Notes: a model not told the origin generated them from the sequence alone. A stretch of DNA of 40,972 bases from Anaerolineae bacterium (GCA_015486895.1 WFQT01000188.1:1-40972), one strand, 5' to 3'. Shown: positions 3 through 18,400, counted from the stretch's first letter. Numbers and translations: made by a program.

Positions 3-638
3 GGAGGTAGTGGGGATGCGCTTCCTCTTAAGTTGGGTAAGAACACTATCGGCCGTCAAGATGACAATGATGTTACGCTGCGCGATTCGACAGTTTCCCG
101 ACATCATGCGGTGATTTTTGTGGAGCGCGATGTGGTGACCCTGCAGGATTTGGGTTCCAGTAACGGGACTTTTGTGAACAACCAGCGTTTGAGCAAAGTG
201 CGGAGCCGGGTAGAGCCGGGTGTCAATATCCGTTTTGGAAATCAAGAATTTACTCTCCGCAAAGACAACGCGAGTAGTGATGATACGGTTCATCAGAGTA
301 ACAAAAGAGAGCCCCAAAACGGATCCGCCCAGGCTAAACAAGTTGATTCTAAGCAACTGAAACCGGCCTTTCTGGTTGATGGTGGAGGGCAGCGCATACC
401 TTTGCAGAAAAAAGAAACGAAAATCGGCCGTAGTCCGGCTAACGATGTAACACTGAATGACCAGGCTGTTTCCACAAATCATGCTGTCATTACTGTGAAG
501 GAGGGGAAGTTTGTCCTGCGCGATTTGGATTCGACTAATGGCACCATAGTCAACGGAGCGAAAGTAAAGGAACATGTATTGCAGCAAGATGACATAATCC
601 AGTTTGGCAAAGCGAAATATGTATTCCAGGTCGGTTGA
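3..638 (+). CDS. Tandem double-FHA domain protein, 5' end outside the window
   Basis: Two FHA motif sets: IGR..TVSRHHA..LQDLGSSNGT and IGR..AVSTNHA..LRDLDSTNGT. The frame is open back to base 3 (GGSGDALPLKLGKNTIGR, paralleling GGGQRIPLQKKETKIGR of FHA2), so TTG33 is probably not the start. Confidence 0.9.
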   Translation, partial: GGSGDALPLKLGKNTIGRQDDNDVTLRDSTVSRHHAVIFVERDVVTLQDLGSSNGTFVNNQRLSKVRSRVEPGVNIRFGNQEFTLRKDNASSDDTVHQSNKREPQNGSAQAKQVDSKQLKPAFLVDGGGQRIPLQKKETKIGRSPANDVTLNDQAVSTNHAVITVKEGKFVLRDLDSTNGTIVNGAKVKEHVLQQDDIIQFGKAKYVFQVG

Positions 639-693
639 GTACGCTCGCTGACATTTTAGCCACCATCAGATTCGTGATAGGAGGAAAAGAAAC

Positions 694-3642
694 ATGAGAA
701 AGTCATTCTCTCAGTATTATTGGAGTGTTGTTGTCCTCATTGCAACACTTGTGATCCTCGTGTTGATAGGAGGGTATACCACGCTGGCTATGACAGAGAA
801 AGCAGACGCCGCAACTACAATGTTCAAGCCGAAGCCTCTAGATGTTATTCTGGTTGTTGACCAATCGCACAGTATGTTCACGATTAGCGATCCTTCCCAG
901 GTCATTACAGATACTCAGGGGAGGCCCATTGGTGAGATTCCTCCTGTGCGGCAATTGGCAGCTCAGTATTTCGTGGATTATTTGCATGTGGATCAAATAC
1001 CCAGTGTCGAAAACAGGGTTGGCATAATTTACTTTGGAGAGAAACCCGAACTGGCAGCTCCCTTGACAAATGTTTCCACGGATCAAAATGTCAGACACTT
1101 GCACGATATATTAGAGGCAACACCCCCTGATTTGCATTGGACAGACACAGATGCCGCTTTCGAAGAAGCTTATAAGGTACTATTCAAGAGTCCCCAAGCC
1201 GATTCCAGCCACGAACACGTGGTTGTGTTCCTCTCTGACGGGCTTCCCCAGATTATCTATCCCTGGCCCATCGAAGACAGCACGAAAAAAGATGGGACGC
1301 CATTAGAGGGTAAGAGAAGTTACTATCTGCGTCACAAGAGGATTATCGAGCAGTTCAGTGAGAAAGGGGTGAGGTTTTATACTATTATTATTGCCAAGAC
1401 CGGATATGTGGATTACAACGACAAAGCACTCCAAGACCCTAAAATGGCCGGGCTTGGTTTCAAGAACTTCGCAAATCTGTGGCAGCAGGCCGCGACCGCG
1501 ACGGGTGGAGATTATTTCCGCTTGAGCGTTGGCAAAAATAACAGTCTGAAGCGCTCGGACCTGTTGGCGATTTACCACGCCATTTTGGCCAATCTGCTAA
1601 GTATTTCGCCATTACAGCGCTACCAAGGGGGGGTAACCGCCCCTGACCAGACTGTGCCTATTACAGTCGGTAAATGCCGGAAATTGTTGATTACAGTGCA
1701 GAAGGGCGAGAGTAATACCGAGGTTAGTCTCAAGACACCGGATAACCAGCTCATTCCTCCAACTACGGTGCGATCGACTTATGTGATCTACAAAGTGGAG
1801 AACCCCCCAACAGGGAGTTGGTGGCTTCGTTTCCAGGGCGGGCAGGGGACAAACTACAATGTCAGCCTGGATTGCGCGGATATTACCCTGCAGGCCAGGT
1901 TTCTCTCTCCGGGAAGTAGTTTCCAGCAATGCAAGCCCATGCCTATAGCTGTTAAGCTGGTTTCTGAAACCGGGGAACCTGTGAATGATGCACTGGTGGG
2001 GGTAAATATCCTTCTTCCTGATGGTAGCACGAAATCTTTGGCTTTGGACAATCGCGGACAGGGCTTGTATCAAAAGACATTCACAGAAACTAAGCAAGAG
2101 GGGAAATATCAACTTTCTTTGGAAGGTCATCAAGGAGATAAGATTGCCAAGCGTGAAAAGGGAGTCTCCTTGTTGGCTGTACCTTATTTAAGTCTTATCA
2201 GCCCTAAGTCCGGAATTCAGTTGCCGGGTGGCACTCTCTCCGTTGAGGCCGGGGTGAAAGTTGCGTGCGCATTAGCCTCGGGAGATGCGGATATCAGTAA
2301 CGGGAAGGCTACGGTTCGCACTTACCTGATCAGAAGCGATGGCACTAAAACGGCGCCCATCGAGCTTGTTGACGACGGGCGCAACGGTGACCACAAAGCG
2401 GGCGATGCTGTTTTCACTGGCGCTTTTTCTCAAGTTCAGAAAGGTGCATACGCTTTGGTGGTGGACCTCGCGGTTCCGGCGTTGAACGTTCAAGATCACA
2501 TCAAGGAGCAGATCACAGTAGGGATGCCGCCAACAAAAACACCTACGCCTACGGAGACACCTGTCCCCACAGCTACGCCAACTGCCACGCCGGCAAATGC
2601 CGGCCATTGGGTCGGGAAAAACAACATCACTGTTCGGGCCGGTACAAAGGGAGAAATACCATTACACTTTAACAGTTCGGGCTTGAAAGACGGGCAAGTA
2701 GTGCGCGTGAAACTCACAGGCGTGCCGGCCGGGCTGGCCCTGCATACGGACCGGGTCCAGATCTTGCCGGGGAAGAAAGACACAACTGCAGTACTTCATT
2801 TTTCGGTGGCGAAAGAGTTAGCGCCGGCCAAAGGTAAAAGCAAGAAAGTCTATGCCGGTACTTTAGAGTTGACCTATCCTGATGGCAAGACTAAGCATGA
2901 TCAGATAAGCTTCACAGTCTTGCCGCCGCCTACCTCTCCATGGGCGTATATCATCATTCTGGTAGTACTGTTGGCAATTGTCGGTGGACTACTTGGTGCG
3001 TACGTTTTCGTCCACGGACGTGGCCAGTTGGTTGGCAGGCTGGTATACGATAGTGCACCGGAAGGCACCGACACGTCTGATATTGACTTGTATGGTAACA
3101 AGTACGATCTGACACTGGATGAAATGCCAAGCTATGAAGAGGGAGAGACTATCCCTGAAGCAGAGAGCGACGATAATGACGGTCTTGGTGGGTACGATAG
3201 CTATGAGGAAAACGACAGCGTGGGGCCTCAAGATGAGCCGTTACATGCAACACTGACGTTTTTCGCTCGCCGAGGAAATCAGGAGGCGGTCTTGAAAGTT
3301 ACTGAAAGTAATAAAGCTGTCTCTGTTAACGGCGGTCTGCTAAGTCAAGGAGAAACCAAGAAACTAAATGATGGGGATATCATTGAAGTGGGTAGTTACA
3401 AATTGCACTATGAATATTTAGGTGTTTCCGGAAATGAAGATGAAGGTTGGCAGACAGAAGAAAACGGATGGGATACAGGGGAATACGGGGATTATACTGA
3501 AGGAGATGACACGGGTGAATACAGTGGTGGCGGTTTCGGAGACTCTGACCAAGGAACTGGATACGACACTGGTAGTTCCGGTGACTATGATCAGGGAACT
3601 GAATACGATGACAGCGGAAATGATGGTTACACAGATTATTGA
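694..3642 (+). CDS. Membrane-spanning vWA-domain protein with Ig-like domains, Pro/Thr linker, TM, degenerate FHA-like domain and acidic tail
   Basis: AGGAGG RBS at 679-684. N-terminal hydrophobic segment; MIDAS DVILVVDQSHS..T..VFLSDG; LVDDGRNGDHKAGDAVFTG (choice-of-anchor-X-like); TPTPT linker; TM WAYIIILVVLLAIVGGLLGAYVFV; VNG..LNDGDIIEVG FHA-type end; D/E/G/Y-rich tail. Confidence 0.85.
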   Translation: MRKSFSQYYWSVVVLIATLVILVLIGGYTTLAMTEKADAATTMFKPKPLDVILVVDQSHSMFTISDPSQVITDTQGRPIGEIPPVRQLAAQYFVDYLHVDQIPSVENRVGIIYFGEKPELAAPLTNVSTDQNVRHLHDILEATPPDLHWTDTDAAFEEAYKVLFKSPQADSSHEHVVVFLSDGLPQIIYPWPIEDSTKKDGTPLEGKRSYYLRHKRIIEQFSEKGVRFYTIIIAKTGYVDYNDKALQDPKMAGLGFKNFANLWQQAATATGGDYFRLSVGKNNSLKRSDLLAIYHAILANLLSISPLQRYQGGVTAPDQTVPITVGKCRKLLITVQKGESNTEVSLKTPDNQLIPPTTVRSTYVIYKVENPPTGSWWLRFQGGQGTNYNVSLDCADITLQARFLSPGSSFQQCKPMPIAVKLVSETGEPVNDALVGVNILLPDGSTKSLALDNRGQGLYQKTFTETKQEGKYQLSLEGHQGDKIAKREKGVSLLAVPYLSLISPKSGIQLPGGTLSVEAGVKVACALASGDADISNGKATVRTYLIRSDGTKTAPIELVDDGRNGDHKAGDAVFTGAFSQVQKGAYALVVDLAVPALNVQDHIKEQITVGMPPTKTPTPTETPVPTATPTATPANAGHWVGKNNITVRAGTKGEIPLHFNSSGLKDGQVVRVKLTGVPAGLALHTDRVQILPGKKDTTAVLHFSVAKELAPAKGKSKKVYAGTLELTYPDGKTKHDQISFTVLPPPTSPWAYIIILVVLLAIVGGLLGAYVFVHGRGQLVGRLVYDSAPEGTDTSDIDLYGNKYDLTLDEMPSYEEGETIPEAESDDNDGLGGYDSYEENDSVGPQDEPLHATLTFFARRGNQEAVLKVTESNKAVSVNGGLLSQGETKKLNDGDIIEVGSYKLHYEYLGVSGNEDEGWQTEENGWDTGEYGDYTEGDDTGEYSGGGFGDSDQGTGYDTGSSGDYDQGTEYDDSGNDGYTDY

Positions 3643-3747
3643 TAACCGTGTTCGACAATTACGCTGCCTTTGGGACATGTCATGTAAGTAATGGAGATGA
3701 TTAAGTCATTGTCATAAGATATTCAGCCAAACTACAGGAGGATGAAA

Positions 3748-6507
3748 ATGGCATATTACGATGATGTTGCTGCAGGCGAAGAAGAAGAATTGGCGCCAGA
3801 AGTGACCATGGAATTCCGACCGACATTGATTATTGGCTTGGGTGGTACAGGTCATGAAATATTGGTACGCTTAAAGGCCCGGTTTTTGGACACGTACGGA
3901 GAGAAAATCTCTCACGTCATTAAGTTGATCTCGTTCGATACGGCGGACGAAAGCATTAATGTGGTTTCGGAAAAAGGGCGACTGGTAAGTCTTACCAAAG
4001 ATGTGGAGTTGGTCAACATTGGTCACGTTCCGGTGGGCAGTATTCTTAGAAATTTGGATCGTCACCCGACCATCAAGGCCTGGTTGCCTACCAATCTGCC
4101 GGTGCGCGCTATCACGGCTGGCGCTAAAGCAATCCGCCCTTTAGGGCGGTTAGCGCTTTTCTATCATTACAGCCAGGAGGCGCGCGTCCGTGATCGCTTG
4201 TTGACCTCGATTCGCTCTTTGACGAATATAAAGCTCAAAGGCGAAGTAGGGGAAGGCGCTGTTGTCGCAAAAACGCGAGGGTTGAATGTCTTCATCGTTG
4301 CGTCTGTATGCGGTGGCACTGGAAGCGGTACCTTTATCGATATGGCTTACTTGACCAAAAAGCTCATCGAGAATAACGGCATACAACCAGAATTTTGTTT
4401 CATAAATGGGATGTTGGTACTTCCCCAAGCGTTTGCCATGGTTGCTTCGGATGCCATTATGGCCAATGCTTATGCTTCCCTTCGCGAATTGAATTACTTC
4501 TCGAAAGAGGGTAACTATTATGCGAAGTATCCAGATGGGTTAGAAGTCCAAATTCACAACCGACCGTTTAATATTTGCTATCTCATCGATGCTGTCAATG
4601 AAAATGGTAAGACATTGACCGGCTTAGAGGATTTAGCTCCGATGATCGCTGAGAGTATTTTCCTGCAAATTGGCTCTCAGGTGGGTAAGGCCACGCAAAG
4701 CGTGTTCGATAATGTGAAGAGCCTGGATCGCATGGAGAACGGGGAACCTACAGCATTTAGCAGCTTAGGTACGGCGTCTTTGGTTTTTCCGGCCAAACGT
4801 ATCATTGAGGTCTGTTCGTATCGTTTCGGCCAGGCTTTGATTCGTGAGGCTGTCACGCATGATCCTGACAAGGGAGCAGTGCCGGAGCTTGTACGCCAAT
4901 TCCAAGAGAAAAGTCATGTGCTGCCGAAGGCACTTCTAAGTGATGTGATGCGTGATCCGAAGGGGCGAGAAATCAGGATTGGACTGGAAGCCAGCAAAGA
5001 GATTCGTGACGCTAATCGTGAAGAGGTATTGAAGCGGACTGAATCATTTGTCCAGAATTTCGAAATCCGACGCTTGAATGGCGATTACATGAAATTGGGT
5101 AATAGCAATGCCAAACGCATAACAGCTAAACTACGCCAAGACTTGGTTGCCGAAACGCACAGAATCGTTGATGATCCTCAGCTAGGGCCTGTGCTGGCTG
5201 TGTTGTTCCTGGAAAGGCTGGATACTGAGTTGAAGAAAATGTTGGCTGCACTCGATAAAGAGCGGCAACGACTCAGCGGGCAACTAAATGCCGTAAAGAA
5301 GCAAATCAACGGTGTGAAAGCCGGTTTTACGGCTGCCTTGAATTCGTTTCCATTGGGAAGAGGTGGACGCATCGCCAAAGCTAGAGATGAATATCTCTCG
5401 GTACGGCAAAAACAGTTCACGCTCCAGCTCGAGATCATGAAGCGCAACCTTATTCTCGGCGCTTTGTCAGATTTCGACAGTGAGGTCGCAGAGTCGAGAA
5501 AAGCCGTCGGTATAATGGTCGACAAGTTTAACGCGGTGGCTCACCGTTTCGAGCGGGAGGAAAAGGAAGCACGAAGGGGCGAACGTTTTGCTCAAATGGT
5601 GCTGACAACGGAGATTACCGATGATAAGGACTTGGACCGCTATTATGGCGAACACGCAGGGGCGGTAGCTGAGAATTTCAACCGCTACCTGGAACGGATC
5701 GGCAGCCTTTACGATATAGGAAAGAAAGATGAAATAACCATTGGCAGAAGCATTTTTGAATTCTCGCAAGGTCTGTTCCAGCCTCTCTTCGATATTCATT
5801 TGGAAGACCTGATTCGCGAGAAACGACACGCCATATCGCCAGAAGAGCGGCTGGAAGATTTGCGCACGGATTCAGTGCCATTTTGGAATTATGAGGCTGC
5901 TAAAATGACGGGCGGTGGCGAGATGGAATCCATTCGCGTCATTGGCGTTGAGGACAAGAACACGTCTCTGTATCGGGATGCCATTCGCAAAGGGGAGACT
6001 TTGATTTCCACACGAGATCCCCATCGCCTGACCGTTTTACACTCGAAGCATGGTTTGCCACTCTTCGCATTGCGTCAACAAGACTTTTACGCGAAGAAAT
6101 ACGAAGAACATTTGCGGAAACGCGTCAGTCCTTTGCACCTGTTTCCTGATTTGCCCTGGTTGGAAGGTGAGGAAGCTGCACACCAATGGTTTGCTTTGGG
6201 TCAGGCTTTTGGATTAATCAAGAAAATTGGTGTGTGGTACTACTGTCAGCCCAAAGACAGTTTGGAGGTAGAGGTCAAACTAGATCAAGGATTGCGTCAG
6301 TCATTAGATGCGTTCACTCAAAACCAACAGCTCATTGATGACATCAAAGGACAAATTGAAGCCAAAATCAGGAATATGGGGAACAAGAAAGCTATAGAGG
6401 TTTTGCAGGAATATCAAGACCGCGCTTTGGCTCGAGATCCCGAAGTGCGACAACTGGAGATTCATTTGAAGAAACTGGTTAGGGAATTTGCTAACCAGAT
6501 GGAATGA
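3748..6507 (+). CDS. Tubulin/FtsZ-like GTPase (Tubulin_2/FtsZl1 type) with long helical C-terminal region, predicted active
   Basis: PTLIIGLGGTG (T1), GAKAIRPLGR (T3-like), VASVCGGTGSGTFID (T4 signature, 4312-4329), ANAYASLRELNYF, PFNICYLID. AGGAGG at 3736-3741 favours ATG3748 over ATG3742. Confidence 0.9.
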   Translation: MAYYDDVAAGEEEELAPEVTMEFRPTLIIGLGGTGHEILVRLKARFLDTYGEKISHVIKLISFDTADESINVVSEKGRLVSLTKDVELVNIGHVPVGSILRNLDRHPTIKAWLPTNLPVRAITAGAKAIRPLGRLALFYHYSQEARVRDRLLTSIRSLTNIKLKGEVGEGAVVAKTRGLNVFIVASVCGGTGSGTFIDMAYLTKKLIENNGIQPEFCFINGMLVLPQAFAMVASDAIMANAYASLRELNYFSKEGNYYAKYPDGLEVQIHNRPFNICYLIDAVNENGKTLTGLEDLAPMIAESIFLQIGSQVGKATQSVFDNVKSLDRMENGEPTAFSSLGTASLVFPAKRIIEVCSYRFGQALIREAVTHDPDKGAVPELVRQFQEKSHVLPKALLSDVMRDPKGREIRIGLEASKEIRDANREEVLKRTESFVQNFEIRRLNGDYMKLGNSNAKRITAKLRQDLVAETHRIVDDPQLGPVLAVLFLERLDTELKKMLAALDKERQRLSGQLNAVKKQINGVKAGFTAALNSFPLGRGGRIAKARDEYLSVRQKQFTLQLEIMKRNLILGALSDFDSEVAESRKAVGIMVDKFNAVAHRFEREEKEARRGERFAQMVLTTEITDDKDLDRYYGEHAGAVAENFNRYLERIGSLYDIGKKDEITIGRSIFEFSQGLFQPLFDIHLEDLIREKRHAISPEERLEDLRTDSVPFWNYEAAKMTGGGEMESIRVIGVEDKNTSLYRDAIRKGETLISTRDPHRLTVLHSKHGLPLFALRQQDFYAKKYEEHLRKRVSPLHLFPDLPWLEGEEAAHQWFALGQAFGLIKKIGVWYYCQPKDSLEVEVKLDQGLRQSLDAFTQNQQLIDDIKGQIEAKIRNMGNKKAIEVLQEYQDRALARDPEVRQLEIHLKKLVREFANQME

Positions 6508-6541
6508 AGTGTTCGGCGGCGGTTTTTCTAAGGGTAACTAT

Positions 6542-6620
6542 TACCAGCCCGATTTAATGGCTGTTTTTGAGAATGACCTCCTTGCCAAACAGTAATTTCC
6601 AGCAGAGACTCGGGCTGGTA
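6542..6620. repeat. Perfect 11-bp inverted repeat with a 57-nt spacer between the two tubulin-like genes
   Basis: TACCAGCCCGA (6542-6552) and TCGGGCTGGTA (6610-6620). Confidence 0.6.
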
Positions 6621-6884
6621 GCATTCAGCAATGGGAATTACAGCGACAATTCGGGGAAAGACTGTTATTGATTCAGAACTGCATTAATGTGTGTTGGCTC
6701 TAAAGTGGTTGCTGCAAGCCCATTTTACAGACCATGCGGTTTGAGCCATCATATTTGACGCATGTTCTTGTTTGTGTCTCCAAGAATTTGGTGTATTCTG
6801 AACAACTCGGGCGAGGAATCAGTTTATCAGACGAAATTAGCTTTGGGTCAGACTCCGATGATTGTGGAGAAAAGAGGTGCTGCA

Positions 6885-9800
6885 ATGGAAAGAACGATAA
6901 GACAGGCATTAATTGTAGGTATTGGAGATACCGGGATAGCAGTGCTTTCAAGACTGCGGGAACGCCTTGTCCACTTATCAGATGGGAAAGGAGTTCCTGT
7001 CATATCGCTTGTTGGGATCAGCGAAAATGGTAACTTTCCGAGAAACGAGCTTCCTGCAGGAGAGGAGGTACAGCCTATCCATCAAATTACTTTGTCCGCA
7101 AGATCTGTAGATGATGCTGTTTTGCAATTGCTGTCACCCGAGCTTCAAGAAGCAATCATAGCGATGAAACCGGCTGGACAATCTGAGGCGTCTACCCGGT
7201 TGACCGGTTGGCTGAAGTTTTTCTCTAACGCGCCGTTTATCGAATCCACACTCCGGCAATGGACGTTGCAGGTCATAGACACGGCCGCCAAAGATAAACT
7301 CAAGAACATGGGCATGGGAGTTCATTCCACTGCGGCCCTGGATGTTTTCGTTGTTGGGGCATTAAGCGATCCTTTTACCAGCGGCACGTTAGTCGAGTTT
7401 CCCTACTTGCTTCAGCATATTTTGGAACATCAGATGATTGCGGAACGCATAACTAAGCGTTACGCCGGTGTTCTTTTTTTACCGGTTTTTGCCGACGAGA
7501 CTCACGATGGTGAAGATATTAATGAACGTCGTAAGAGAGAGTATACGCAACAGGCTAACACCTATGCCGCTCTAAAGGAACTGGACTATTACATGGACCA
7601 GGGGCATTACAAGATGAGTTTTGATCCGGGGTTGCGAGTAGAACAGATTAGGGCACCTTATGACTACGTTTATTTGGTTGATGCGGTGAATGAAGCCAAT
7701 CAAAGGATCCCTACCCGCTCTCAGATGACCGAAATGGTAGCTGAATGGTTCGATCAGACTTTGACCACCACAATGGGCGAAGAACTGAGCAAGCAAAGTA
7801 CGCAAGGCGGAATAGCGCGTTCCTTTGGGAAATTGGCGGTTTACAGCGGTTTTGGGCTTTCAGCCTATATTTTACCTGTGGAAGAGACTATTGACGTTGG
7901 TGCAATCCGTTTGGGGCTGGATATGCTGGGTCGCTCTAAGGGGTTGTTGAAAGAGCAGCCCCCGGAAGCCATCGAGCCGGTCGTTTTCTCCGCAGTAGAT
8001 AAGGACGGGGTTGTCGCTCGGCTGCGTAATGGTAATGGGGGCGACAAAAAGATTGCCGCTTATACAAACCAATTTGACAAGCCTTTCCGGCATATGGCCC
8101 CTTACGACCTGAAAGCCTTTTTTGAGACGGTTTATAAATCGTTTGGACATAATTACACCAGGCTTCTGCCGGTTATTGAAAGGAATATGGCGACTAATCT
8201 GGAAGACCTTCTCGATGAAAAACAAAAAGAGGTCGAAGACAAAGCCTTTGAGCTGATCGATGATAACCATATCGGCGGTATTTCCCTGGCTATCCGTGCC
8301 TTGCAGTCACTGACGGAGCGTTTGAATAAGTTAGTCGCTGTAGAACGCGGGAACTTGGACTTGATAACTGGTCAATTGAAAGAGGCAACTGAGGATGTGA
8401 CTAAGACACAAGCAGCTCATGTCGCTGCTGTTTATGCTTTTTATCCGGAGGATTGGAGAGAGCAGATCGTTGTCTGGGGTGGTTTGATTGGTTTCTTGGT
8501 ATTTTCATTTTGGCTGTCTATTACATCGTTTCTGTTCGCTAAAGACAATTTGGCTGGTTTAGTTGCTGAGTGGAGCGGCGGTGATCTAAGTTTTTTAGCT
8601 CGCGCTGGCTTACAACTGGCTACTTTTCTCTTCCTTATCGCGGCTCTGTTTGCTGTGGGCGTGGCCGGATATAATGCCTACCACTGGTGGAAGCGTACTC
8701 GCTCTAATTATGTCTCTACCCTAAAAACAAGATTGACAGATGCTCTAAAGAAGGTTGTGACCTCTATGACGCTTCATTACTTTTCCGCTATAGAAAGGGT
8801 GAGTAAAGAGGTCAACGGCCAAGTTGTAGATTTGCGGGATAAAGTGGAAACCGTCCAGGATGCGTTGCAACAACGGTTTGCTGCGCCTCATGCGTTGTAT
8901 GGTTCGCGACGTTTCTTGCTGGAAGAGTCTTTACTGACGGAAGAAGATTTTGATGAGTTTTATGAAGAGATTGTTGGGGGTTCTGTCGAGGACGAACTCT
9001 ATAGATTCTCCCAGCCGGAGCAATATGGCACTATTTCCGGATGGCGGGATATGGAGCCGAAGGAAATAGAAGACAAGTTACTTGCGTTTGGCAGGGGATA
9101 TCTGTCTCCGGGATTGAAGGAAAAGGATGTCGAGACGCTTTTAGTCAAACATGCTCAGTTGAGTGAACCCAACGAATCTGGAAGACACCCTTACTCTCCA
9201 ACGGCCAATGATGAGGATGCTAAGATTCGTGCTGTACAAGAGAAAATGAAAGATTTGATCGACTCTGCCAAGCCATTCTTGCGCTATAATTCCACGGCAC
9301 TTGATACAGCGGTAAATCCGTCGTTGATTCAGGTAGTTGGTTTTCTCCAGGCTAACAATGATGATTCTTTGGTACAAAAAGCGGTGGAGCAAATTGGTAT
9401 TGGCTCTGGGGCAACAATCCAAACAGTGCGTGTACCCGATCGCTATCATATTATTTCCATGTCAGTCCGGCATGGCCTGCCTTTGTCTGCCGTTAGTATG
9501 CTTGCGAGTTATCGAGAACAGTATAGCCGGTTTCGGGCCAGGAATGAGGTAGGTTTGCATGCCCAAAGCAAGTATCTTATGTTGCCGGATATTTTCCCCC
9601 TCCGTTTCGAGGGAAAGATTATATCAGAACCGCAAGAAGCGGTTGCTCTGGGCCTCGCTTTTGGCAAAGTGCACTGGAACTCGCGCCAAAAGCGCTACGA
9701 GTGCCAGTATCATGACAATTTCCTGGAAAAGAATATTGTCGTGCCTCTGGGAGAGGATAAAACTGCCGCCACAATGTTTCTACAAGAGCACGTGGAGATA

Positions 9801-10067
9801 CTATCAATCCTCTCTGAACAAATCGATGAAGATGTAACCCGTAGAAGTCGACAAAAACTGAGTGTGAGTGCTCTGGGAGATACGGCAGGCGAAAGTGCTA
9901 CAATTACGACGGAATCTGCTAAAGGCATCGTGGGCGGTAATCGTTCAGTTATTAAGTTCTTGCTCGATTACCTGGAAAAGAACAAAAAGAGTAGAAGCAA
10001 ACGAAAAGCGTTAGCCGATTGGGAAATTCTTGTAATCGAGGAGTATATTACTAAATTGAGAAGATAA
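6885..10067 (+). CDS. Second tubulin-like protein with degenerate GTP-binding motifs and an internal transmembrane hairpin
   Basis: ALIVGIGDTG; T4 position reads GALSDPFTSG (7368-7385); ANTYAALKELDYY, PYDYVYLVDAVNE, RHGLPL and ALGLAFG align with the upstream paralog; hydrophobic segments at about 8466-8680. GAGGTG RBS precedes ATG6885. Confidence 0.85.
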   Translation: MERTIRQALIVGIGDTGIAVLSRLRERLVHLSDGKGVPVISLVGISENGNFPRNELPAGEEVQPIHQITLSARSVDDAVLQLLSPELQEAIIAMKPAGQSEASTRLTGWLKFFSNAPFIESTLRQWTLQVIDTAAKDKLKNMGMGVHSTAALDVFVVGALSDPFTSGTLVEFPYLLQHILEHQMIAERITKRYAGVLFLPVFADETHDGEDINERRKREYTQQANTYAALKELDYYMDQGHYKMSFDPGLRVEQIRAPYDYVYLVDAVNEANQRIPTRSQMTEMVAEWFDQTLTTTMGEELSKQSTQGGIARSFGKLAVYSGFGLSAYILPVEETIDVGAIRLGLDMLGRSKGLLKEQPPEAIEPVVFSAVDKDGVVARLRNGNGGDKKIAAYTNQFDKPFRHMAPYDLKAFFETVYKSFGHNYTRLLPVIERNMATNLEDLLDEKQKEVEDKAFELIDDNHIGGISLAIRALQSLTERLNKLVAVERGNLDLITGQLKEATEDVTKTQAAHVAAVYAFYPEDWREQIVVWGGLIGFLVFSFWLSITSFLFAKDNLAGLVAEWSGGDLSFLARAGLQLATFLFLIAALFAVGVAGYNAYHWWKRTRSNYVSTLKTRLTDALKKVVTSMTLHYFSAIERVSKEVNGQVVDLRDKVETVQDALQQRFAAPHALYGSRRFLLEESLLTEEDFDEFYEEIVGGSVEDELYRFSQPEQYGTISGWRDMEPKEIEDKLLAFGRGYLSPGLKEKDVETLLVKHAQLSEPNESGRHPYSPTANDEDAKIRAVQEKMKDLIDSAKPFLRYNSTALDTAVNPSLIQVVGFLQANNDDSLVQKAVEQIGIGSGATIQTVRVPDRYHIISMSVRHGLPLSAVSMLASYREQYSRFRARNEVGLHAQSKYLMLPDIFPLRFEGKIISEPQEAVALGLAFGKVHWNSRQKRYECQYHDNFLEKNIVVPLGEDKTAATMFLQEHVEILSILSEQIDEDVTRRSRQKLSVSALGDTAGESATITTESAKGIVGGNRSVIKFLLDYLEKNKKSRSKRKALADWEILVIEEYITKLRR

Positions 10068-10849
10068 CAGGGTGGTTGTGTATTGTTCGCAGCGGTGAAT
10101 TACAAGAAATTTTGCTCGTTACCAGTCGGCCGTTTCAGTGGGGAGATGATTGGTAAAATGGCATTCTGCTTTTTGCCGACTTATTCTGATACATTGGTGT
10201 TGTCCGGGAGAGATGTAAGGAATCTGCGGAGAACCTACGTAATCAGCGTTCCACTTGACCCAGATTGAGCAGTTACGCTCTCTCAATCTATTAGGGTGAG
10301 AAAAAGATGATGAGGCGAGAGACGGACGCATGTTGGGAAATAGCTCGTTTCCTTTCGCGTCTCCGTGATTGGTCGAGTGCTGTTGACAGGTCTGTTGAGT
10401 AACAGGTTCGACGAATTCGCTAAACAACTAAAGCTCAGCTCTGCTATGTTTGGAGCCTGCCTAAACTATCCATAGAAAATGATTTGACAGGGAAGCAGCC
10501 TGCCAGTTGTGTGTTCGTTGCTTTCGAAGCTGTCTCTGCGCGTTCTGTACTCCTTGCAGCTTCCGTTTCCAGCAGGTGGGTAACCAGTATAGAGCGTCAA
10601 TCAAAATGGGAAAGTAACATTACTTAGGACATTGCTAATATTGCGACATTGTAAGTTTTACTTGTTGAAGCGTCATGGTGGGCTATCAGGTGCATTTTAC
10701 AAGAATAATTGGGGCTGTTACCTTGACTGTGGACGCGAGATGGTGGATATGACCTGATATCGACGGGATAATGCAGGGTTTGGACAAATCGGGGGGCTGG
10801 ATGCTCATTCTTTTTTTCACGCCAAGTGGGCTACGCAGAAGGAGGAATC

Positions 10850-13630
10850 ATGTCTTTGCAACCTGGCATGCATTTAGGACGCTATGAAATTGTGGCTCTA
10901 CTCGGGGAGGGTGGATTCGCTAATGTCTATGAGGGCTACCAACGCGAGTATGACCGGCGGGTCGCCGTAAAGGTGCTTCACGAGTGGTTGGCCAAGGATG
11001 CACGCATTGTAGCCAGATTTAGGGAAGAGGCGATCAAAACATTCAACCTCCAACATCCCAATATTGTGCGTGTGTTGGATTTTCAGGAGGATCGCGGTCA
11101 TTATTTCATCGTGATGGAACTTGTAAATGGCCAGTCGTTACGCCAGCTAATCAATGCTCGTGACGCGACAGATTTTGTGCACGATGATGTGGCTGCGACT
11201 CGTCTTCACGATGACGCTAATGCCAAGACGCAGCTTCACCAGCTCTCCTCTTCTTATCAAGAACTCGATCTCGGCATCATTTCCAGCATTTTTCGGGATG
11301 TGTGTGCTGCGCTCACATACGCGCATGGCGAGCAGATCATTCATCGCGATGTGAAACCGGACAATATTCTGGTGGCGAGGGACGGCCGGGCATTGTTGGT
11401 GGATTTTGGTATTGCTAAAGCCCAGGATGAAGCGCTACATCTGACTAGTACCGGTGTGCGAATTGGCTCGGCTTTATATATGGCGCCGGAGCAAATCCGT
11501 GTGTCTGGCAAGCAAGAAAGCGATTATCGTTCCGATATTTATTCTTTGGGCGTCACTTTATACGAAGTATTGACCGGAACACCCCCTTTCGTCGCGAGAG
11601 AGGCGCAAAGCATCTGGAGAATGCATTTGGAGGACCAGCCGATTCCTCCCTCACGGCAGAAACCTGATTTACCTGAGCGACTCGACGCAGTTGTGCTCAA
11701 ATGCTTGGCGAAAGACCCAAACGATAGGTACCAGAATGCTACAGATGTTGCTCAGGCGCTTTCCGATCTGATAACACCCAAACCTATCACGATCTTGTTC
11801 TCCTCCACGCCACCGGTGACTGCCAAGAAGCGTCGCGAAGAGAAAGCGAAATTGGTATGTCCGGCATGCGGATATGATTTTCATGCTACGGATGTCAAAG
11901 CTATCTGTCCGGCGTGCGGGTACGAGTTCCCTGCTGAAGAAGGGGGACAAGCTTTCTCCCAGCGAGAGGCACGCGCCAGTAAATTCCTGCGTGATTTGGG
12001 CCTCAGTGCGGACTTATCACTTGATGTGAAGGCTTACGAGTATGACAAGAGCATCAAGACGCCTCTCCAGGCAGCTACCAGGCATGCTGTCGAACATGCC
12101 AAAGAAGTTTTCGCCGATGGTGTCGTTGTTCTTCCTGAAGAGAGTCCTGATCTGCCCCAGAAATACACTGACACCAGCGCTGCCTTGTTTGATGTAGCAG
12201 CATTGATGGAATCCCAAGCCTTGAAAGAATTTCAGGTTAAGCGAACGGCCCGGCGATATCGGCGACAGTCAGTCCATAAGGCGCGAGCATTGGCCTGTGC
12301 GGTAATAGGCAAATATCACACGTCGTTGGCTGCCTCTCGCGAGAACCACGATGAGGTGGTGAAGGGATACGAACAGTCTGTCAACTGGTATCAGAGGGCT
12401 CAGGAACACGGCAAGCAGAGCGATGAGCAAAGGGAGGCATTGACATCTCGCTTTGAGGCTGCGGAGATGCTCGTCAAGCTCATTTTGGACTTTCCGCCAG
12501 AAGGACAGGATCGATTAGCAGAGCAGGCTGTGCGCGTGTTTGATGATTTGCCACCTGACTTTTGGGGTGCTGAAGCAGATAAGAAGAAAGCAAATAGTTA
12601 CCGGGGACTGTATGCCGAGAAATTGGAGACGATAGAAAGAGCTAAGAAGGAAATTGCTAATACGCAAGCCACAACCCTCGGCTATGGGAAGAAATGGCGT
12701 GCTTCTGATGAGAAATCTTTACTGGCGCCGTTACGCGCTCGGTTAAATACGTTGTTTGCACAACAACTGCCTTCGCTGTTGCCTCATGACGCTGAAATAC
12801 ATTTGACGCTTTGGATTGGCATTTTTCTCTTATGGCTTTTAGGGCGCGCACTGCTCCCACTTGGATCTTTGATCCGGGCTGCACACGTGTTAGCATTGCT
12901 GCCAATGCCTCACTTTTTATCTCCTGCCATTGGATTGATTGGGACTGCCATCAGCGGCCTGTTGATTTTAGCGCCGTGGATTTTAGGGTATTGGGGTGGG
13001 TATGGGCGCGCTCGTCCCAGCGTAAAGCATTTCAACCAGATCGATCTAATCCTTTCTTTTGTTGCCATTCTGACGCTATTGCCGTGGTTGGGGCTCTGGC
13101 TTTATGGGGCCTTACTGATGGGTTTGGGGGTTATAGCCGGTAGATATTTGGACAAAAAGAGAGCTTTCAAACGTGGGGATAAAGTAGGTATGGTTATTGG
13201 AGGTGCGTTGTTGGTGCTCTTTTTGCTCTATCTCGTGCTTTATGCTGCACCGCTCACTTTGGTGTTGGCGGCGCTTGTCGGCTTGGCCGGTTGGCTGAGT
13301 GGTGACTATCTGTGCCGGTTGGATGTGACGTCCACGGCGTTACAGCAGATCAACGAGAATCTCTCGTTGCTGGAAAAAGAGTCGACGCTCCTTGTGGCTC
13401 GGCTGCTGTACAGTGTGGATCGGGATGAGTTCGTGAATGTGGAAGCGTTGAAAAGTGGAACTGAGGACTTTCGAAACGGGTTAACCGAGATCGTTTTCGA
13501 CGGTAGTACGGGCTGGACGGTCAAGGGACTCGTAATGCAGTTGAAGAAAAGCACGATTTCTCTTTTGCGCCATGGGGTGCAGGAAGCAAGCGTCAGATTG
13601 AGAAAAGGCAAAGATCGGCAACAGAATTAA
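10850..13630 (+). CDS. Ser/Thr protein kinase with double CxxC zinc ribbon, helical (TPR-like) region and polytopic membrane domain
   Basis: GEGGFANV, VAVK, FREEA, HRDVKPDN, DFG, YMAPE, DIYSLG; CPACG..CPACG; several C-terminal hydrophobic helices; AAGGAGG RBS before ATG10850. Confidence 0.92.
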   Translation: MSLQPGMHLGRYEIVALLGEGGFANVYEGYQREYDRRVAVKVLHEWLAKDARIVARFREEAIKTFNLQHPNIVRVLDFQEDRGHYFIVMELVNGQSLRQLINARDATDFVHDDVAATRLHDDANAKTQLHQLSSSYQELDLGIISSIFRDVCAALTYAHGEQIIHRDVKPDNILVARDGRALLVDFGIAKAQDEALHLTSTGVRIGSALYMAPEQIRVSGKQESDYRSDIYSLGVTLYEVLTGTPPFVAREAQSIWRMHLEDQPIPPSRQKPDLPERLDAVVLKCLAKDPNDRYQNATDVAQALSDLITPKPITILFSSTPPVTAKKRREEKAKLVCPACGYDFHATDVKAICPACGYEFPAEEGGQAFSQREARASKFLRDLGLSADLSLDVKAYEYDKSIKTPLQAATRHAVEHAKEVFADGVVVLPEESPDLPQKYTDTSAALFDVAALMESQALKEFQVKRTARRYRRQSVHKARALACAVIGKYHTSLAASRENHDEVVKGYEQSVNWYQRAQEHGKQSDEQREALTSRFEAAEMLVKLILDFPPEGQDRLAEQAVRVFDDLPPDFWGAEADKKKANSYRGLYAEKLETIERAKKEIANTQATTLGYGKKWRASDEKSLLAPLRARLNTLFAQQLPSLLPHDAEIHLTLWIGIFLLWLLGRALLPLGSLIRAAHVLALLPMPHFLSPAIGLIGTAISGLLILAPWILGYWGGYGRARPSVKHFNQIDLILSFVAILTLLPWLGLWLYGALLMGLGVIAGRYLDKKRAFKRGDKVGMVIGGALLVLFLLYLVLYAAPLTLVLAALVGLAGWLSGDYLCRLDVTSTALQQINENLSLLEKESTLLVARLLYSVDRDEFVNVEALKSGTEDFRNGLTEIVFDGSTGWTVKGLVMQLKKSTISLLRHGVQEASVRLRKGKDRQQN

Positions 13631-13674
13631 AGTTAGCATGAACAGTCATGGGAAAGCGGATCGGGGAGGAAGGT

Positions 13675-15402
13675 ATGAGTATTGCGGAATATTCCAATGT
13701 CATTGATCACCTACCGTCCATCAGGGAGATTAGAAATCTCCATAGGGCTAAGACAGGAACTCACACTCATGGTGATGTTTTCTTACTTCATCATACTGGC
13801 AATGAGGGAGTGGTTTTGAAACTCTTGTTCGAAAAACTGGTGAGCGATCAGGCATTCCAGTCGGGATTTCTTAAGGCCGCTGCGATAGCGGCTAAGTTGG
13901 AACATCCCAACTTTGTCCGCGTGTTTGGCGCCAAAAAGGTGGGCAACCAAGTGGTGTTGGCGATGCAATACGCTGACAAGGGGAGTCTCAGTGATGTCTT
14001 GGATAAGGCCGACGATAACAAACTTTCTCTCGACAAAGCGGTTCGAGTTTTAGCAGGTATCTGCGCTGCGCTAGAATACGCACATGAAAAACGAATTACG
14101 CATTGGAACATCAAGCCGGGGAGCGTATTGTTAACCAGAAATGATCAGGTTAAGCTCGATGCCTTTGATTTGGTTATGGCAATGATGGAAGCGCACGGAG
14201 GTGGGAATGCCCGTGATACCGAGGTAAAAGGTTTGGGGTCCGTGTTTTACGAAATGGTAACGGGATTACCTTACGACGAAGATACCACAAGACTGGGCAT
14301 TATTAGACCTGGAAAATTACGGAAGGTTATTAGGCGGTCGTTGGAAAGTGGTAACGGCAATCCTTATCGGAATGTGAGTCAGTTTTGCGAGGATTTTAAG
14401 AGATCTCTCCCTAAATCAGGGGGAGTGCTTGTGGCACTTGGCGATGTTTATCGCACAGCTAAACAAAGGCTAACTATTCGGTGGGAATATCCTGTTGAGC
14501 TTGATTCTGATTATTATCCTTCAGCGATTCGGTTGAACCGGGATGGGGATGTCTATTTGCTTTTGTCGTCTCGATCACAAAATGCGGGTCTGGTTTATTT
14601 TTACGACAAGCGATTTGCTGGCAAAGCTCGGCAGGAATATTCAATCGAGGGGATACCGATCAATGCATTTTTGTCCGACAATGGTGGCATTCTTTACATC
14701 GTGATACGTGGCCAGACTAACGAGTTGAGGATTTTGGAGTGGGATACTTCAAGAAAGAAATGGATTCAGGACTGGTATGTCCCTGGCGATGGGATCAGGC
14801 AGATATTGAGAATTAGAAATGATGGTAGGTTTCTTCTTGTCGAGGAGAACCAGCTTGTTATATGGGATGCCTTTCGCGGTCAATCGAAAGCAGTGAACGC
14901 AAAGTTAAGGAACAAAGAGATTATCTTGGCTGCTTATAAGGACGAGGGTGGCATTAGGATTATTTCATCACTTATCAAGAATTCTACTAGCACTGACCTA
15001 TGTATAGATATCTCTCGATTTGTTCTTGATGGTACAATTTTCTGTCGCCACCTGGACGAGCAGCAAGTTGGCGGGGATAATGATGAGCCAATGGAACGCT
15101 CGGTGCCAGCCGCCGGCCGTCGTTATTTGGGTTTTCGTATAGACGATTTACGGCTGTTCTTTTTTGATATTTCAAAGCGATCTGTTGTTTCAGTCAAATT
15201 GCCGTACAATTATGCCACTTGCGCCTCTACAATTGGCGAGCCCACTGGTGAACTGGCCATGCTGAATAAAGATATTGCCAAGGAAAGTCTTTTGTGGTGG
15301 GTCGGAAATAGAAGCGTAGCTGTTGCCATACAACAAAACCGTGAACGATTCGTACGGATCTATCCTTTGACGTACCTTCATCACATCTTGGGAGTGGGTT
15401 AA
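13675..15402 (+). CDS. Pseudokinase with C-terminal beta-rich (propeller-like) domain
   Basis: Kinase fold remnants VVLK, HPNFVRV, MQYADKGSL, ALEYAH. HRD is replaced by HWN, DFG by AFD, and there is no Gly-rich loop or APE. GGAGG..ATG13675. Confidence 0.75.
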   Translation: MSIAEYSNVIDHLPSIREIRNLHRAKTGTHTHGDVFLLHHTGNEGVVLKLLFEKLVSDQAFQSGFLKAAAIAAKLEHPNFVRVFGAKKVGNQVVLAMQYADKGSLSDVLDKADDNKLSLDKAVRVLAGICAALEYAHEKRITHWNIKPGSVLLTRNDQVKLDAFDLVMAMMEAHGGGNARDTEVKGLGSVFYEMVTGLPYDEDTTRLGIIRPGKLRKVIRRSLESGNGNPYRNVSQFCEDFKRSLPKSGGVLVALGDVYRTAKQRLTIRWEYPVELDSDYYPSAIRLNRDGDVYLLLSSRSQNAGLVYFYDKRFAGKARQEYSIEGIPINAFLSDNGGILYIVIRGQTNELRILEWDTSRKKWIQDWYVPGDGIRQILRIRNDGRFLLVEENQLVIWDAFRGQSKAVNAKLRNKEIILAAYKDEGGIRIISSLIKNSTSTDLCIDISRFVLDGTIFCRHLDEQQVGGDNDEPMERSVPAAGRRYLGFRIDDLRLFFFDISKRSVVSVKLPYNYATCASTIGEPTGELAMLNKDIAKESLLWWVGNRSVAVAIQQNRERFVRIYPLTYLHHILGVG

Positions 15403-18400
15403 TGATTGACCTGATATTTGACTTCCTAAACAATCTGCTTGCCAACTGGATATGGGATGTTGCCGGTCATGATCTTGTGATTGCAGGCGCCATATCAGTT
15501 GTGTTGCTTTTACTCGCGGTTGCTCGTTTTCAGGAAGGTGGATCAGCAGATAGTAAAGTGTCTGCTTTATGGAAAATCTTGCTGGCACAGTCTACTAAGA
15601 TCCTCTTCTTTTTGTTTGGTGTTGCCTGGGGAGTCTTGTGGTTTGAGACGGGATTTGTCGCGGCTGGTCGATGGGTACCTAAGCTAATGCTTTTGGTTTT
15701 TGCCTTGGTTCTTGTTTATGTGGTGTGGAGCTTTCGCACGGAGAACTGGGTGTGGTGTTATGCTGTCTTGATGGTCGCGCTCTTTATTATGTTCTTGTAT
15801 CCTACCCCTGCCAGTTGGGTTCACGGTGACTTGGCTTCTGTGTACGTCGAGGTATCTCCCAGGTATAGGGAAACCGCGTTACAAAATGTGCAGATAGGGA
15901 GTGAACTGGCTCGTCATCACATATATTCAACTATAAAGTTCTCATGGGCGGGCGCAAAGAGGCAGAATCCGGTCAGGTATCTACAATATATTAGACGTAA
16001 CGCTTTGTATGACGCGGCGGTTATGATCACGGATGACGGTGAGAAAGACAGTAATTGGCACATTTCCTTCGATCCTCCGATTAACGGTACTGATCGCATT
16101 ACTGTTACAACGCATGTTAGTATGGAGTATGTAATATCCGGCTACTTGGCACGATTGAGAATCTCGCACGGGTTGGACGCACCTTCTTACCACGACATGT
16201 CGACATTCTTGGAGTTATTGTTTCCCATGGGAAAAGTGTCTGGATGGGAAGGGCTACCAGATGAATCATTCAAGTCACTGGATGTTGCGACTCGAACGAT
16301 ACCTGACTTGTCCTACTTGATTCTCAAAAGCGCCTTCCAAACGCGAAACTGGGACTTGTTGAATTGGAAAGTGCCCACCAGTGATCTGGACTTGGAATCG
16401 TGGAGCAAAAAGCGAGTCGAAGATAGTTCGGACAAAGAGACCCGGAAAAACGTGAAGTTTGCCAAGCAGTTACTATTGCTGGGCATAGCTATTCAAAGAC
16501 GCGAGTTAGATTCTGCCGTGGAGTTAGACAAAAACCTGCATGACGAAATGACTGCTTGGGGGGAAAGCCTCCCGTCTTCACTGACAACGAAATACTACAT
16601 TTTGCACGTCAAATTGGGATTATTGTATATTGATCTTTCTAAGGACAGGGTGCAGATAGGGTCTGATGATCTCAAACATCTCATGAAAAAGGGGGAAGCT
16701 TATCAAGATGAAAGAGACTTACTATTGGGTCAAATATATCTGGACTATAGCAGTTTGATTGGGAAAGGAGGCCTTGCTGACAATGAGCGCATGTCCGAGG
16801 CGGCAAAACGATTGCAATCGGCCTGTACAGAAGCTGTTCATACCGATAGTCCCCTTTCCGGTATCGAGGCGTGTTACTGGGGATATGATAGGATCCCACC
16901 GGTATTGAGCACTGTTGACTGGATGGGTCAGGCACAGAAAATAGCCGATAGATACCACATATCTCTGAAGGAAGCATTTGTCGAAAACGCAAGAAGTAGT
17001 ATTGAGGCGATCCAGGCTGAAAAAAAGATTGAGCTCCCTATTCAGCTAATGGCATTTGTGCCGTCAACTGAACGTTCATCCAAAGAGATTGTTCTACGTA
17101 TTAAGGACGAATACAACAAAGACGCGGGTACGTGCGTGCTCAAGTTACAAAATGGTATAGGTTCACACGATGCAATACAGGAATACCGGAGTGATTCTTC
17201 TTGCAAAGTGACGGTGGGCACAGATTACCACTATCGCTGGAGTGAAAACAAACAGCATAGCGGCACTATTACTTTAAAGCCACGAAAATATTTCCTGTAT
17301 TGGACACCTTCAGGTGGGACAGAACGAAAGTTTAGCCTTGTACCCCTGGTGCTGGACTTACGCCCCATGCCGATCGATATTCATTTGGAATTTCAGCCGC
17401 AACAGAGATTCCATGTTGTCGGAGAGCCTATTACCCTGACAGCGTATTTTCGAGGCAGTTTATCTTCTGCTCACGCTTCAGAGCTTATGAATATGATTTC
17501 CACTCACGTGAAATTCAATGCAGAAATTCGGCCAGCCGCACCTTTGCACGGTAAATGTCCCCTAGAAACCCCTGTTCCACTGAATACTGACGGTTCACAG
17601 GTCGTTAGTGGACGATGGATTCCCCGTGTGGGGGCGTGTGATGCATACAATGTTCGAGTTAAAGGTGTCTCGCTCGGTCACGTAGTATACATTGGAACGA
17701 TGCCCTTGCAATCGCAGGTCATAAAACTGGATAATATTGTGCCTTGTACCATGCAGATTGCTGACAACAATGTGGTCTGGATTTATGGCGGCCCCTCTGC
17801 TCAACACTATGACCGGATAAAGAGGCCAGAAGCTGGTGAAACTTTCAAAGTGACTGGGAAGGATGCTTTTAATGAAAGGTGGGTGAGGATTGATCTTGGT
17901 GACGGAAAAGAAGGGTGGATATACAACAGCCCAGGTCATGTCATAGTACATGGCTCTCTCTCGGATGTTCCGATACTAGACAAGAGGCCACCATCCAATC
18001 CACACGTAATTACCGTTCGGGATGTAATTTTGCTTAGTGGACCTGGGGAGCGGTGTGAGAAAGTGTCTAAGATGGGACCTGGTACAGATTTGAAAATCCA
18101 GGCGCAGAGTGTGGATGGACAGTGGTGGAAGGTCCAGTACAAGGGGGGTACTGGATGGATTAGGAAAGATAATGTAGGCCAGGTTCAGGGTACAACCGAA
18201 GAAATCAAGGCCTTGTGGCCCTTGGACGTCAAGATAGTGAAGGAAACTAACACGTACGATTCGTATGGAGATTATGGGAGTAAAGCCCTTGTCGGCGATC
18301 GTTTCAGCGTTACAGGAAAAAGCCAAGACGGGAAATGCTTACAAAGCTATTTGGGCGACGTGTCAGGAGTTTGGATTGATAGTAGCGCTGTGGAGTATAT

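Follow-up and report, generated by a model that had tools for sequence, protein, structure and literature searches.

Background

What becomes of a tubulin-like protein whose nucleotide loops have been replaced, when it is encoded directly behind a paralog in which the same loops are intact? This question is raised by a contig of 40,972 nucleotides (nt) from an Anaerolineae bacterium (GCA_015486895.1, WFQT01000188.1:1-40972; 'the window' below denotes this whole stretch), in which two consecutive genes, here called A and B, encode divergent relatives of tubulin and FtsZ. A first-pass annotation, made from the sequence alone, had proposed that B is a retained, catalytically dead partner of A, a bacterial parallel to the asymmetry of alpha/beta-tubulin or BtubA/B. 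The reading that we consider probable, if by a modest degree, differs from this in an important respect: B, itself free of nucleotide, would serve the soluble GTPase A as membrane tether, seed or cap, acting in a module of the type that joins von Willebrand factor A (vWA) proteins to the 'FtsZ-like 1' (FtsZl1) family. It builds on the homology of the two proteins, the retention of their fold, the loss of the loops throughout the B-type class, purifying selection, a hydrophobic hairpin in B, and the order of the genes.

A and B are tubulin-like paralogs

Gene A encodes 921 amino acids (aa), and gene B encodes 1101 aa in its longest open reading frame (ORF) or 1060 aa in the database gene model, which starts at 6885 instead of 6762 (Table 1). 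All residue numbers of B given here are counted from the start at 6885. The start previously given for A, position 3748, is the second ATG of an initial MKM, the longest ORF beginning at 3742. It had been claimed that the two proteins align along their length, and BLASTP indeed joined them with 23% identity over 549 N-terminal columns (E 1e-23) and, in a second segment, with 26% identity in the C-terminal domain (E 1e-7). Membership in the Tubulin_2 family (PF13809) was judged by its curated cut-off of 27 bits; both lie above it, the scores among the window proteins being 223.1 bits for A (E 8e-66) and 99.5 bits for B (E 3e-28), and those in the scan of the whole genome 226.4 and 102.2 bits, respectively. 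A and B are the only PF13809 matches in the source genome, whose assembly of 3.4 Mb has a completeness of 88.7%. Since this genome also encodes a canonical FtsZ on another contig, with the motifs GGGTGTG and NLDFAD, the A/B pair is not the division ring.

Both proteins have numerous relatives. A has 757 homologs at E≤1e-10, and the orthologs of B examined at 83, 47, 45, 34 and 28% identity are every one full length, as is B itself, which had rightly been described as an uninterrupted ORF; uninterrupted full-length orthologs of B reach down to about 20% identity. NCBIfam matched neither A nor B, PADLOC matched A not at all and B only once and marginally (SAVED_TM, E 0.0093), and a metagenome scan with B found no relative. 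The intergenic gap between A and B (6508-6884) measures 377 nt to the database start of B and 254 nt to that of the longest ORF; neither an Rfam match nor, on the + strand, a site resembling a terminator was found in it. For the window as a whole, Rfam returned nothing, and a promoter and terminator scan stayed at chance level.

The nucleotide loops are intact in A and replaced in B

In FtsZ and tubulin, the T1 and T4 loops hold the phosphates of GTP, and an Asn of helix 7 probably holds the base. The motifs that had been quoted for the two genes are all present, and those of A and B occupy identical alignment columns (Table 1). To place them in the context of the family, 295 family proteins were collected, of which 182 were A-type (both loops intact) and 88 B-type (both loops degenerate). 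The T1 columns of the A-type proteins are nearly invariant (G 98, L 83, G 100, G 100, T 94 and G 100%), whereas the B-type proteins have lost the second glycine pair, the fourth position being occupied by E (22%), R (14%) or P (12%) in place of Gly. The same holds for T4, in which the A-type columns read G 100, G 100, T 97, G 99, S 91 and G 99%, and the B-type pattern is x-[D56/E33]-[P56]-x-x-[S68]-[G65] (in %), such that 89% of the B-type proteins have Asp or Glu in place of the first T4 glycine. The conservation of this T4 variant among orthologs of B, which the first-pass annotation had named as a point to check, was thereby borne out. By analogy with the loops of FtsZ and tubulin, an acidic side chain at this position should repel the phosphate. 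Because the replacement of T1 and T4 is conserved across the class, it is not random decay.

Other motifs follow the same division. The motif GA..(V/I)RP.GR, which lies between T1 and T4, is well kept in the A-type proteins (G 100, A 94, R 100, P 79, G 100 and R 86%), whereas in the B-type proteins nothing but the first Arg survives (88%), the GA portion having mostly been deleted. The helix-7 Asn is found in 99% of A-type but in 20% of B-type proteins. On the other hand, K-E-L-D retains its Glu in both types, at 98% and 94%, respectively. The signature loop of the FtsZl1 family, GGGTG(S/T)G, is represented in A by CGGTGSG and is missing from B, which has SDPFTSG. Judged by its sequence, B is thus an FtsZl1 member by homology and not by catalytic signature. 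In a local hhalign alignment of A with the FtsZ of the same genome, the T1, T4 and T5 loops were aligned; the alignment beyond these is unreliable, with a probability of 8.7%. It is to be noted that T6-H7 is described as hard to identify in the FtsZl1 family too, in the main text of PMC2875224.

Predicted structures of A and B

AlphaFold2 (AF2) models were of high confidence for both proteins, the predicted local distance difference test (pLDDT) being 90.4 for A, from an alignment of 86 rows, and 89.3 for B, from 81 B-type rows. The model of B has the same three-part plan as that of A, namely an N-terminal tubulin-like domain, a region of long helices and an alpha/beta C-terminal domain. With the model of A as query, the best Foldseek matches in the PDB were CetZ1, CetZ, TubZ, FtsZ and tubulins (32 at E≤1e-3). 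CetZ1 was matched by A with E 2.7e-5 and a template modelling (TM) score, relative to the target, of 0.50, and CetZ2 was matched by B with E 4.4e-4 and a TM score of 0.47, each over about 330-360 columns of a predicted model; the N-terminal domain of B also matched FtsZ, TubZ and tubulin. In the models, then, the two-domain tubulin/FtsZ fold is kept in both A and B. Prediction of a complex of A (aa 20-400) and B (aa 1-380) with GTP (score 0.00, mark 0.32) gave no call either way.

The C-terminal domain is mixed alpha/beta in both models, as opposed to 'mostly alpha-helical' in the main text of PMC2875224. When the A profile was searched against PDB sequences, neither FtsZ nor tubulin came up, but only proteins with coiled coils and, weakly, the C-terminal domain of RecA. 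As a separate observation, aa 800-876 of A (6139-6369) matched the RecA C-terminal family PF21096 with E 1.6e-5 and 25.3 bits, the cut-off being 27, and the A-family profile matched the PDB RecA entry 3hr8 with E 0.0017; several A orthologs bear the same RecA C-terminal Pfam label in precomputed annotation. The ESM Atlas yielded no usable match for the C-terminal domain of A.

B-type proteins form a conserved class

A profile of the B clade was run against 1.84 billion representative sequences and gave 7039 family matches at E≤1e-3. The full-length top matches were B-type, and B therefore belongs to a large subfamily. A FastTree phylogeny of 155 N-domain rows (80 A and 75 B) required a single change of the A/B label when all columns were used (Shimodaira-Hasegawa-like support 89), and three changes, compared to 51.8 for shuffled labels, when the motif columns were removed. 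This fits one or a few ancient origins of the A/B split in the sequences compared, although the tree is only indicative, since the groups were defined by motif and FastTree readily joins long branches.

Selection was gauged in two ways. Most of the interval is covered by contigs from two further public runs (X2 and X3), and among the 40 differences listed of a total of 58, A had 28 synonymous and one nonsynonymous, and B nine synonymous and two nonsynonymous. In five A+B pairs of Anaerolineae and Caldilineae, at loci other than the window, the ratio of nonsynonymous to synonymous divergence (dN/dS, Nei-Gojobori) was 0.06-0.13 for A and 0.12-0.18 for B, with a dS of 0.7-2.2 that is near saturation. 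By these sequence comparisons, B is under purifying selection, and dN/dS, which the first-pass annotation had named as a check, was low in the five related pairs.

These data bear directly on the alternative that B is a decaying duplicate, or a pseudogene in the making. Loss of the catalytic motifs and faster evolution than A would agree with it, but full-length orthologs down to about 20% identity, the dN/dS of the related pairs, the synonymous nature of nine of the 11 listed strain differences in B, the conservation of the replacement motif and of the hairpin described below, and the confident AF2 model all speak against it, and we consider it extremely unlikely. The pseudogene reading of B was rejected, as the orthologs, the dN/dS and the conserved motif and hairpin contradict decay.

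The run X2 comes from a different study, and its contigs match long stretches of 3742-10067 at ≥99%. Beside these, X2 has another variant that diverges further, in records with 12-30 differences. Samples of that kind thus repeatedly contain closely related strains.

A hydrophobic hairpin distinguishes B from A

A feature that the first-pass annotation had missed is a pair of hydrophobic helices in the long-helix region of B (Table 1), with Kyte-Doolittle means over 19 residues of 2.17 and 2.25. In the AF2 model, both segments are helical, and they form a hairpin that breaks the third long helix and lies at the tip. Gene A, in contrast, encodes no hydrophobic 19-mer. The distinction extends to the two classes: among the B-type proteins of at least 700 aa, 75 of 86 had at least one hydrophobic segment and 63 at least two, at aa ~500-600, whereas 174 of 179 A-type proteins had none. 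A hairpin that is present in B and absent from A points to the role of a membrane anchor or seed more than to that of one half of a symmetric heterodimer. Such a hairpin would place both the tubulin-like N-terminal domain and the C-terminal domain of B in the cytoplasm, beside the soluble A.

It is at this point that the parallel drawn earlier has to be weighed. If A and B formed an obligate heterodimer in the manner of alpha/beta-tubulin or BtubA/B, they would associate through a longitudinal interface and co-polymerise. They are tandem paralogs of the same fold, the K-E-L-D Glu and the motifs of the C-terminal domain are kept in both, and in most pairs the genes are tightly spaced, all of which would suit a heterodimer. 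Also shared is the division of labour between paralogous subunits of tubulin fold, the genes of which are neighbours in BtubA/B. However, all subunits of alpha/beta-tubulin and BtubA/BtubB bind GTP, whereas B is without T1 and T4, and its class has lost the helix-7 Asn; alpha/beta-tubulin and BtubA/B have no membrane hairpin, no coiled coil and no C-terminal domain of the A/B type; the hairpin in B alone indicates that A and B are not equivalent building blocks; and some genomes hold just one of the two. We therefore regard a symmetric heterodimer as quite unlikely. Of the earlier claim, the part that stood is that B is retained, that its loops are replaced and that its pairing with A recurs; the parallel with alpha/beta-tubulin and BtubA/B was imprecise and is weak, as GTP is bound by the subunits of those pairs, which do not insert in the membrane.

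In Foldseek, the helical region of B (aa 409-666; 8100-8900) also weakly matched AhlB, SmhB and MakA, which are tripartite alpha-pore-forming toxins (E 4.6e-4, TM ≤0.24, root-mean-square deviation (rmsd) ~30 Å), a result that may be due to no more than the long helices.

Pairing of A and B in other genomes

Among 41 related genomes, the source genome included, PF13809 was found in 11. The order FHA-FHA-vWA-A-B-Ser/Thr kinase recurs at one locus (L003), vWA-A-B at another (L004), and A-B at two more (L005 and L012), and in each of these four, A is intact and B degenerate. In L003, L004 and L010, the gene directly upstream of A encodes a vWA protein. For a wider view, the pattern YAALKELD was derived from a 12-row B-type alignment, and it retrieved mainly A-type genes: 79 loci in 79 other species, with an A-type gene in 76 and a large ORF directly downstream in 66. 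Searched with a hidden Markov model (HMM) of the B type, 14 of these 66 downstream ORFs matched at E≤1e-10, with A-to-B gaps of ≤79 nt. Ten loci of this grade are named Chloroflexota (Anaerolineae, Caldilineae, Chloroflexia, or phylum only), and Thermodesulfatator, Bipolaricaulota, Omnitrophota, Acidobacteria and an 'uncultured bacterium' are represented by one each. A further 21 of the 66 had 1e-10<E≤1e-3, in Microcystis, Paenibacillus, Clostridium and Saccharibacillus. A phylum-wide profile search, which was sparse in that two candidates were scored per genome, gave matches in seven of 301 genomes.

Several observations weigh against the reading of B as a membrane tether, seed or cap for A. 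Pairing is not universal among the related genomes, and 31 of the 66 downstream ORFs are without a clear B match (E>1e-3 in 27, no match in four). The gap between A and B in the window (254-377 nt) is far above that of other pairs. In one genome of 93% completeness (G010), the sole PF13809 match is a B-type gene, at 2245-5133 of a 7-kb contig (L011); in another (G031), an A-type gene is followed by at most a very weak B match; and in a third (G038), A is split in two ORFs with no B-type gene after it. B evolves about two to three times faster than A, which suggests a looser constraint on B; in what is probably one and the same contig, the ortholog of A is 74% and that of B 45% identical. The A-type and B-type groups were defined by the motifs themselves. 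Since the T7 loop is unmapped in both proteins, as it also is in PMC2875224, the competence of A for GTP hydrolysis and polymerisation is something that we infer only.

The B-type gene of G010 introduces a different possibility, namely that B acts on its own, without A, as a scaffold at the membrane for the vWA, FHA and kinase proteins, with its old pocket serving another ligand or none. That gene has the motifs GIGHRA and NEHLGSG and adjoins FHA and Ser/Thr kinase genes, followed by a convergent gene; no A-type gene was detected in its nearly complete genome, and to judge from these sequences its product may be without an A partner. The conserved acidic/Pro variant of T4 could, in addition, constitute a new binding site. 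Nonetheless, B-type genes directly follow an A-type gene in the great majority of cases, and the motifs of the C-terminal domain are common to B and A, so that an independent scaffold appears unlikely to us.

Two side observations concern related loci. The closest A-type relative among the related genomes searched (L009 3073-5852, 54% identity) consists of ORFs of 464 and 423 aa with a gap of 114 nt and no B-type gene after them; either the gene is broken or the assembly is at fault. There is also another type of tandem pair (L006 4353-14483, L007 4114-14155 and L008 3731-10391), in which a Tubulin_2 protein of ~1200 aa is followed by a protein of ~2100 aa with Tubulin_2 at aa ~1100-1500; T1 is intact in both copies, and the T4 of the second copy reads GGFGS(G/A).

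The gene neighbourhood and a possible mechanism

The genes of the neighbourhood are all on the + strand. The cluster opens, close to the contig's upstream end, with the FHA gene, whose product has two of these phosphothreonine-binding domains (Table 1). The vWA protein between this gene and A has hydrophobic segments at aa 12-30, near its N-terminus, and at aa 753-771, and an intact DxSxS motif (DQSHS at aa 56) of the metal ion-dependent adhesion site (MIDAS). Its middle domains are Ig-like and, weakly, YtkA-like (E 0.0025, below the cut-off), and its C-terminal tail has a weak FHA match (E 0.0033, also below the cut-off). Downstream of B follow a Ser/Thr kinase with about four C-terminal hydrophobic segments and a half-kinase that extends from the N lobe up to about the catalytic loop, the product of which, by its sequence, is possibly a pseudokinase. 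Neither an OmpA gene nor a separate P-loop GTPase gene was seen in the window.

Table 1. Positions of genes, motifs and predicted domains in the window (residues of B counted from 6885)
Feature	Residues (aa)	Window position	Strand	Remarks
Double-FHA small protein		33-638	+	First cluster gene; Pfam FHA E 4.8e-44, 2 stretches
vWA receptor-like membrane protein		694-3642	+	VWA_2 E 1.1e-8, VWA E 1.1e-5
Gene A	1-921	3742-6507	+	Longest ORF
A, T1 loop GLGGTG	32-37	3835-3852	+	Aligns to GMGGAG of the genome's own FtsZ
A, GAKAIRPLGR	127-136	4120-4149	+	Family-specific motif, between T1 and T4
A, T4 loop GGTGSG	191-196	4312-4329	+	Signature loop; aligns to GGGTGTG of the genome's own FtsZ
A, tubulin/FtsZ-like domain	~23-371			Predicted
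A, three long helices	426-612			Predicted
A, alpha/beta C-terminal domain	620-921			Predicted
Gene B, longest ORF		6762-10067	+	1101 aa
Gene B, database gene model	1-1060	6885-10067	+	
B, T1 GIGDTG	12-17	6918-6935	+	Degenerate
B, ASTRLTG	102-108	7188-7208	+	At the place of GAKAIRPLGR of A
B, T4 SDPFTSG	161-167	7365-7385	+	Replaced
B, tubulin-like domain	~3-348			Predicted
B, four long helices	409-666			Predicted
B, hydrophobic helix pair	528-552 and 576-602	8466-8690	+	Hairpin in long-helix region
B, alpha/beta C-terminal domain	680-1059			Predicted
Ser/Thr kinase		10826-13630	+	~Four C-terminal hydrophobic segments; Pkinase E 1.2e-49
Half-kinase		13648-15402	+	N lobe up to about catalytic loop; Pkinase E 8.4e-17, profile 8-149 of 263
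SH3b-rich membrane protein		15402-19319	+	

With these neighbours, the reading that we prefer can be spelled out. A would be the soluble, GTP-binding and presumably self-assembling subunit, and B an ancient paralog that would have given up nucleotide binding and be fixed in the cytoplasmic membrane by its helical hairpin, so that A could assemble on B as a membrane tether and as a seed or cap. Control of assembly would be exerted by the receptor-like vWA protein on the outer side and, on the inner side, by the FHA proteins and Ser/Thr kinases encoded nearby, phosphorylation being read by the FHA domains; the output might be membrane remodelling, or else a conflict or immunity response. Binding of GTP by A and its lack in B, contact between the two, polymerisation and the biological output are what we infer from the observations above. 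The arrangement would resemble that of FtsZ and its membrane tethers FtsA, ZipA and SepF, as a soluble GTP-dependent polymer would be held at the membrane by an anchor encoded nearby; in this case, however, the anchor would be the polymer's own paralog, a pseudo-GTPase, and not an unrelated protein. A more general form of the idea, which we put forward tentatively and hold to be clearly less probable, is that B-type proteins are widespread nucleotide-free membrane pseudo-tubulins that template or cap A filaments, gated by a vWA/MIDAS receptor and by FHA-read Ser/Thr phosphorylation. In its boldest form, the hairpin of B would be a conditional membrane-perturbing effector that is released by the assembly of A.

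Comparison with known systems

Both the family and the type of operon are already known. PF13809 is the FtsZl1 family of Makarova and Koonin 2010 (PMC2875224), whose main text describes predicted operons that also encode vWA proteins, Ser/Thr kinases, a GTPase and OmpA-like proteins, and proposes a role in membrane remodelling; a later survey of the superfamily, as far as its accessible text goes, left the FtsZl1 group aside (PMC9871819). As in that description, both A and B have an FtsZ-like domain at the N-terminus, a long coiled coil and a further C-terminal domain, and the window has a vWA gene with an intact MIDAS, Ser/Thr kinases nearby and a canonical FtsZ elsewhere in the genome. A second paralog with degenerate loops and a membrane anchor is, by contrast, not mentioned in the main text of PMC2875224, supplements aside.

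Tubulin-domain genes were also described by Kaur et al. 2020 in conflict systems centered on GAP1-N2 GTPases (PMC7159879); in the Firmicutes versions treated in its main text, two tubulin-domain genes are accompanied by vWA genes, of which one is a YtkA fusion and one encodes an extracellular vWA domain. These suggest another explanation of the locus, in which it would be a threshold switch of conflict or immunity and B a membrane-damaging effector, its hairpin inserting or forming a pore when A assembles. In favour of this explanation, the described systems have two tubulin-domain genes fused to coiled coils with vWA genes alongside, the window vWA protein has its weak YtkA match, and the helical region of B has its weak matches to AhlB, MakA and SmhB. 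Nevertheless, the GAP1-N2 systems are defined, according to the same text, by a GAP1 GTPase and FNIII-repeat proteins, whereas a Pfam scan of 16 large + strand proteins of the 41-kb contig found no GAP1-type GTPase, HSP70 or FNIII. The window has a single vWA gene, and its YtkA match is sub-threshold; its lineage is Chloroflexota-like, as against Firmicutes or Actinobacteria in the text of PMC7159879, which in its treatment of the Firmicutes calls no tubulin copy inactive or membrane-inserted. PADLOC added only the one marginal match to B, and generic kinase matches for the Ser/Thr kinases of the window; the toxin superpositions are poor; and the position of the hairpin is constant, as it would be for a permanent anchor. 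Taken together, we find a conflict system rather unlikely, though the least so of the alternatives weighed here, and retain the reading of B as an anchor and seed or cap for A.

In the literature searched, supplements of PMC2875224 and PMC7159879 aside, no dead, membrane-anchored FtsZl1 paralog was found, and the pairing of a loop-dead, membrane-anchored B with an intact A is new to that extent. The same search found no experimental characterisation of FtsZl1/Tubulin_2. FtsZl1/Tubulin_2 is among the most divergent branches of the tubulin/FtsZ superfamily, with thousands of members, as the number of representative matches attests. If the more general form of our reading is correct, bacteria would possess a tubulin-like cytoskeleton that is signal-gated and transmembrane and built on the principle of a pseudoenzyme plus an enzyme. 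Should many operons pair an intact GTPase with a conserved, membrane-anchored dead paralog, the hypothesis is concrete and cheaply testable, and bacteria would furnish an instance of a pseudo-GTPase partner that has the tubulin fold, with a bearing on the evolution of subunit asymmetry, as in alpha/beta- and gamma-tubulin.

Other features of the window

At 15402, the half-kinase gene ends in a stop that overlaps with the start of the SH3b gene. These genes belong to a kinase-rich island (10826-36412) with six full Ser/Thr kinases, starting at 10826, 20697, 23304, 26944, 29083 and 34430, most of which have C-terminal hydrophobic segments. The kinase at 29083 has an SH3b domain, and a further SH3b protein is encoded at 25762-26892. 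Among the kinases also lies the gene (30745-34011) of a 1088-aa beta-propeller protein of NHL repeats with a PA14 domain.

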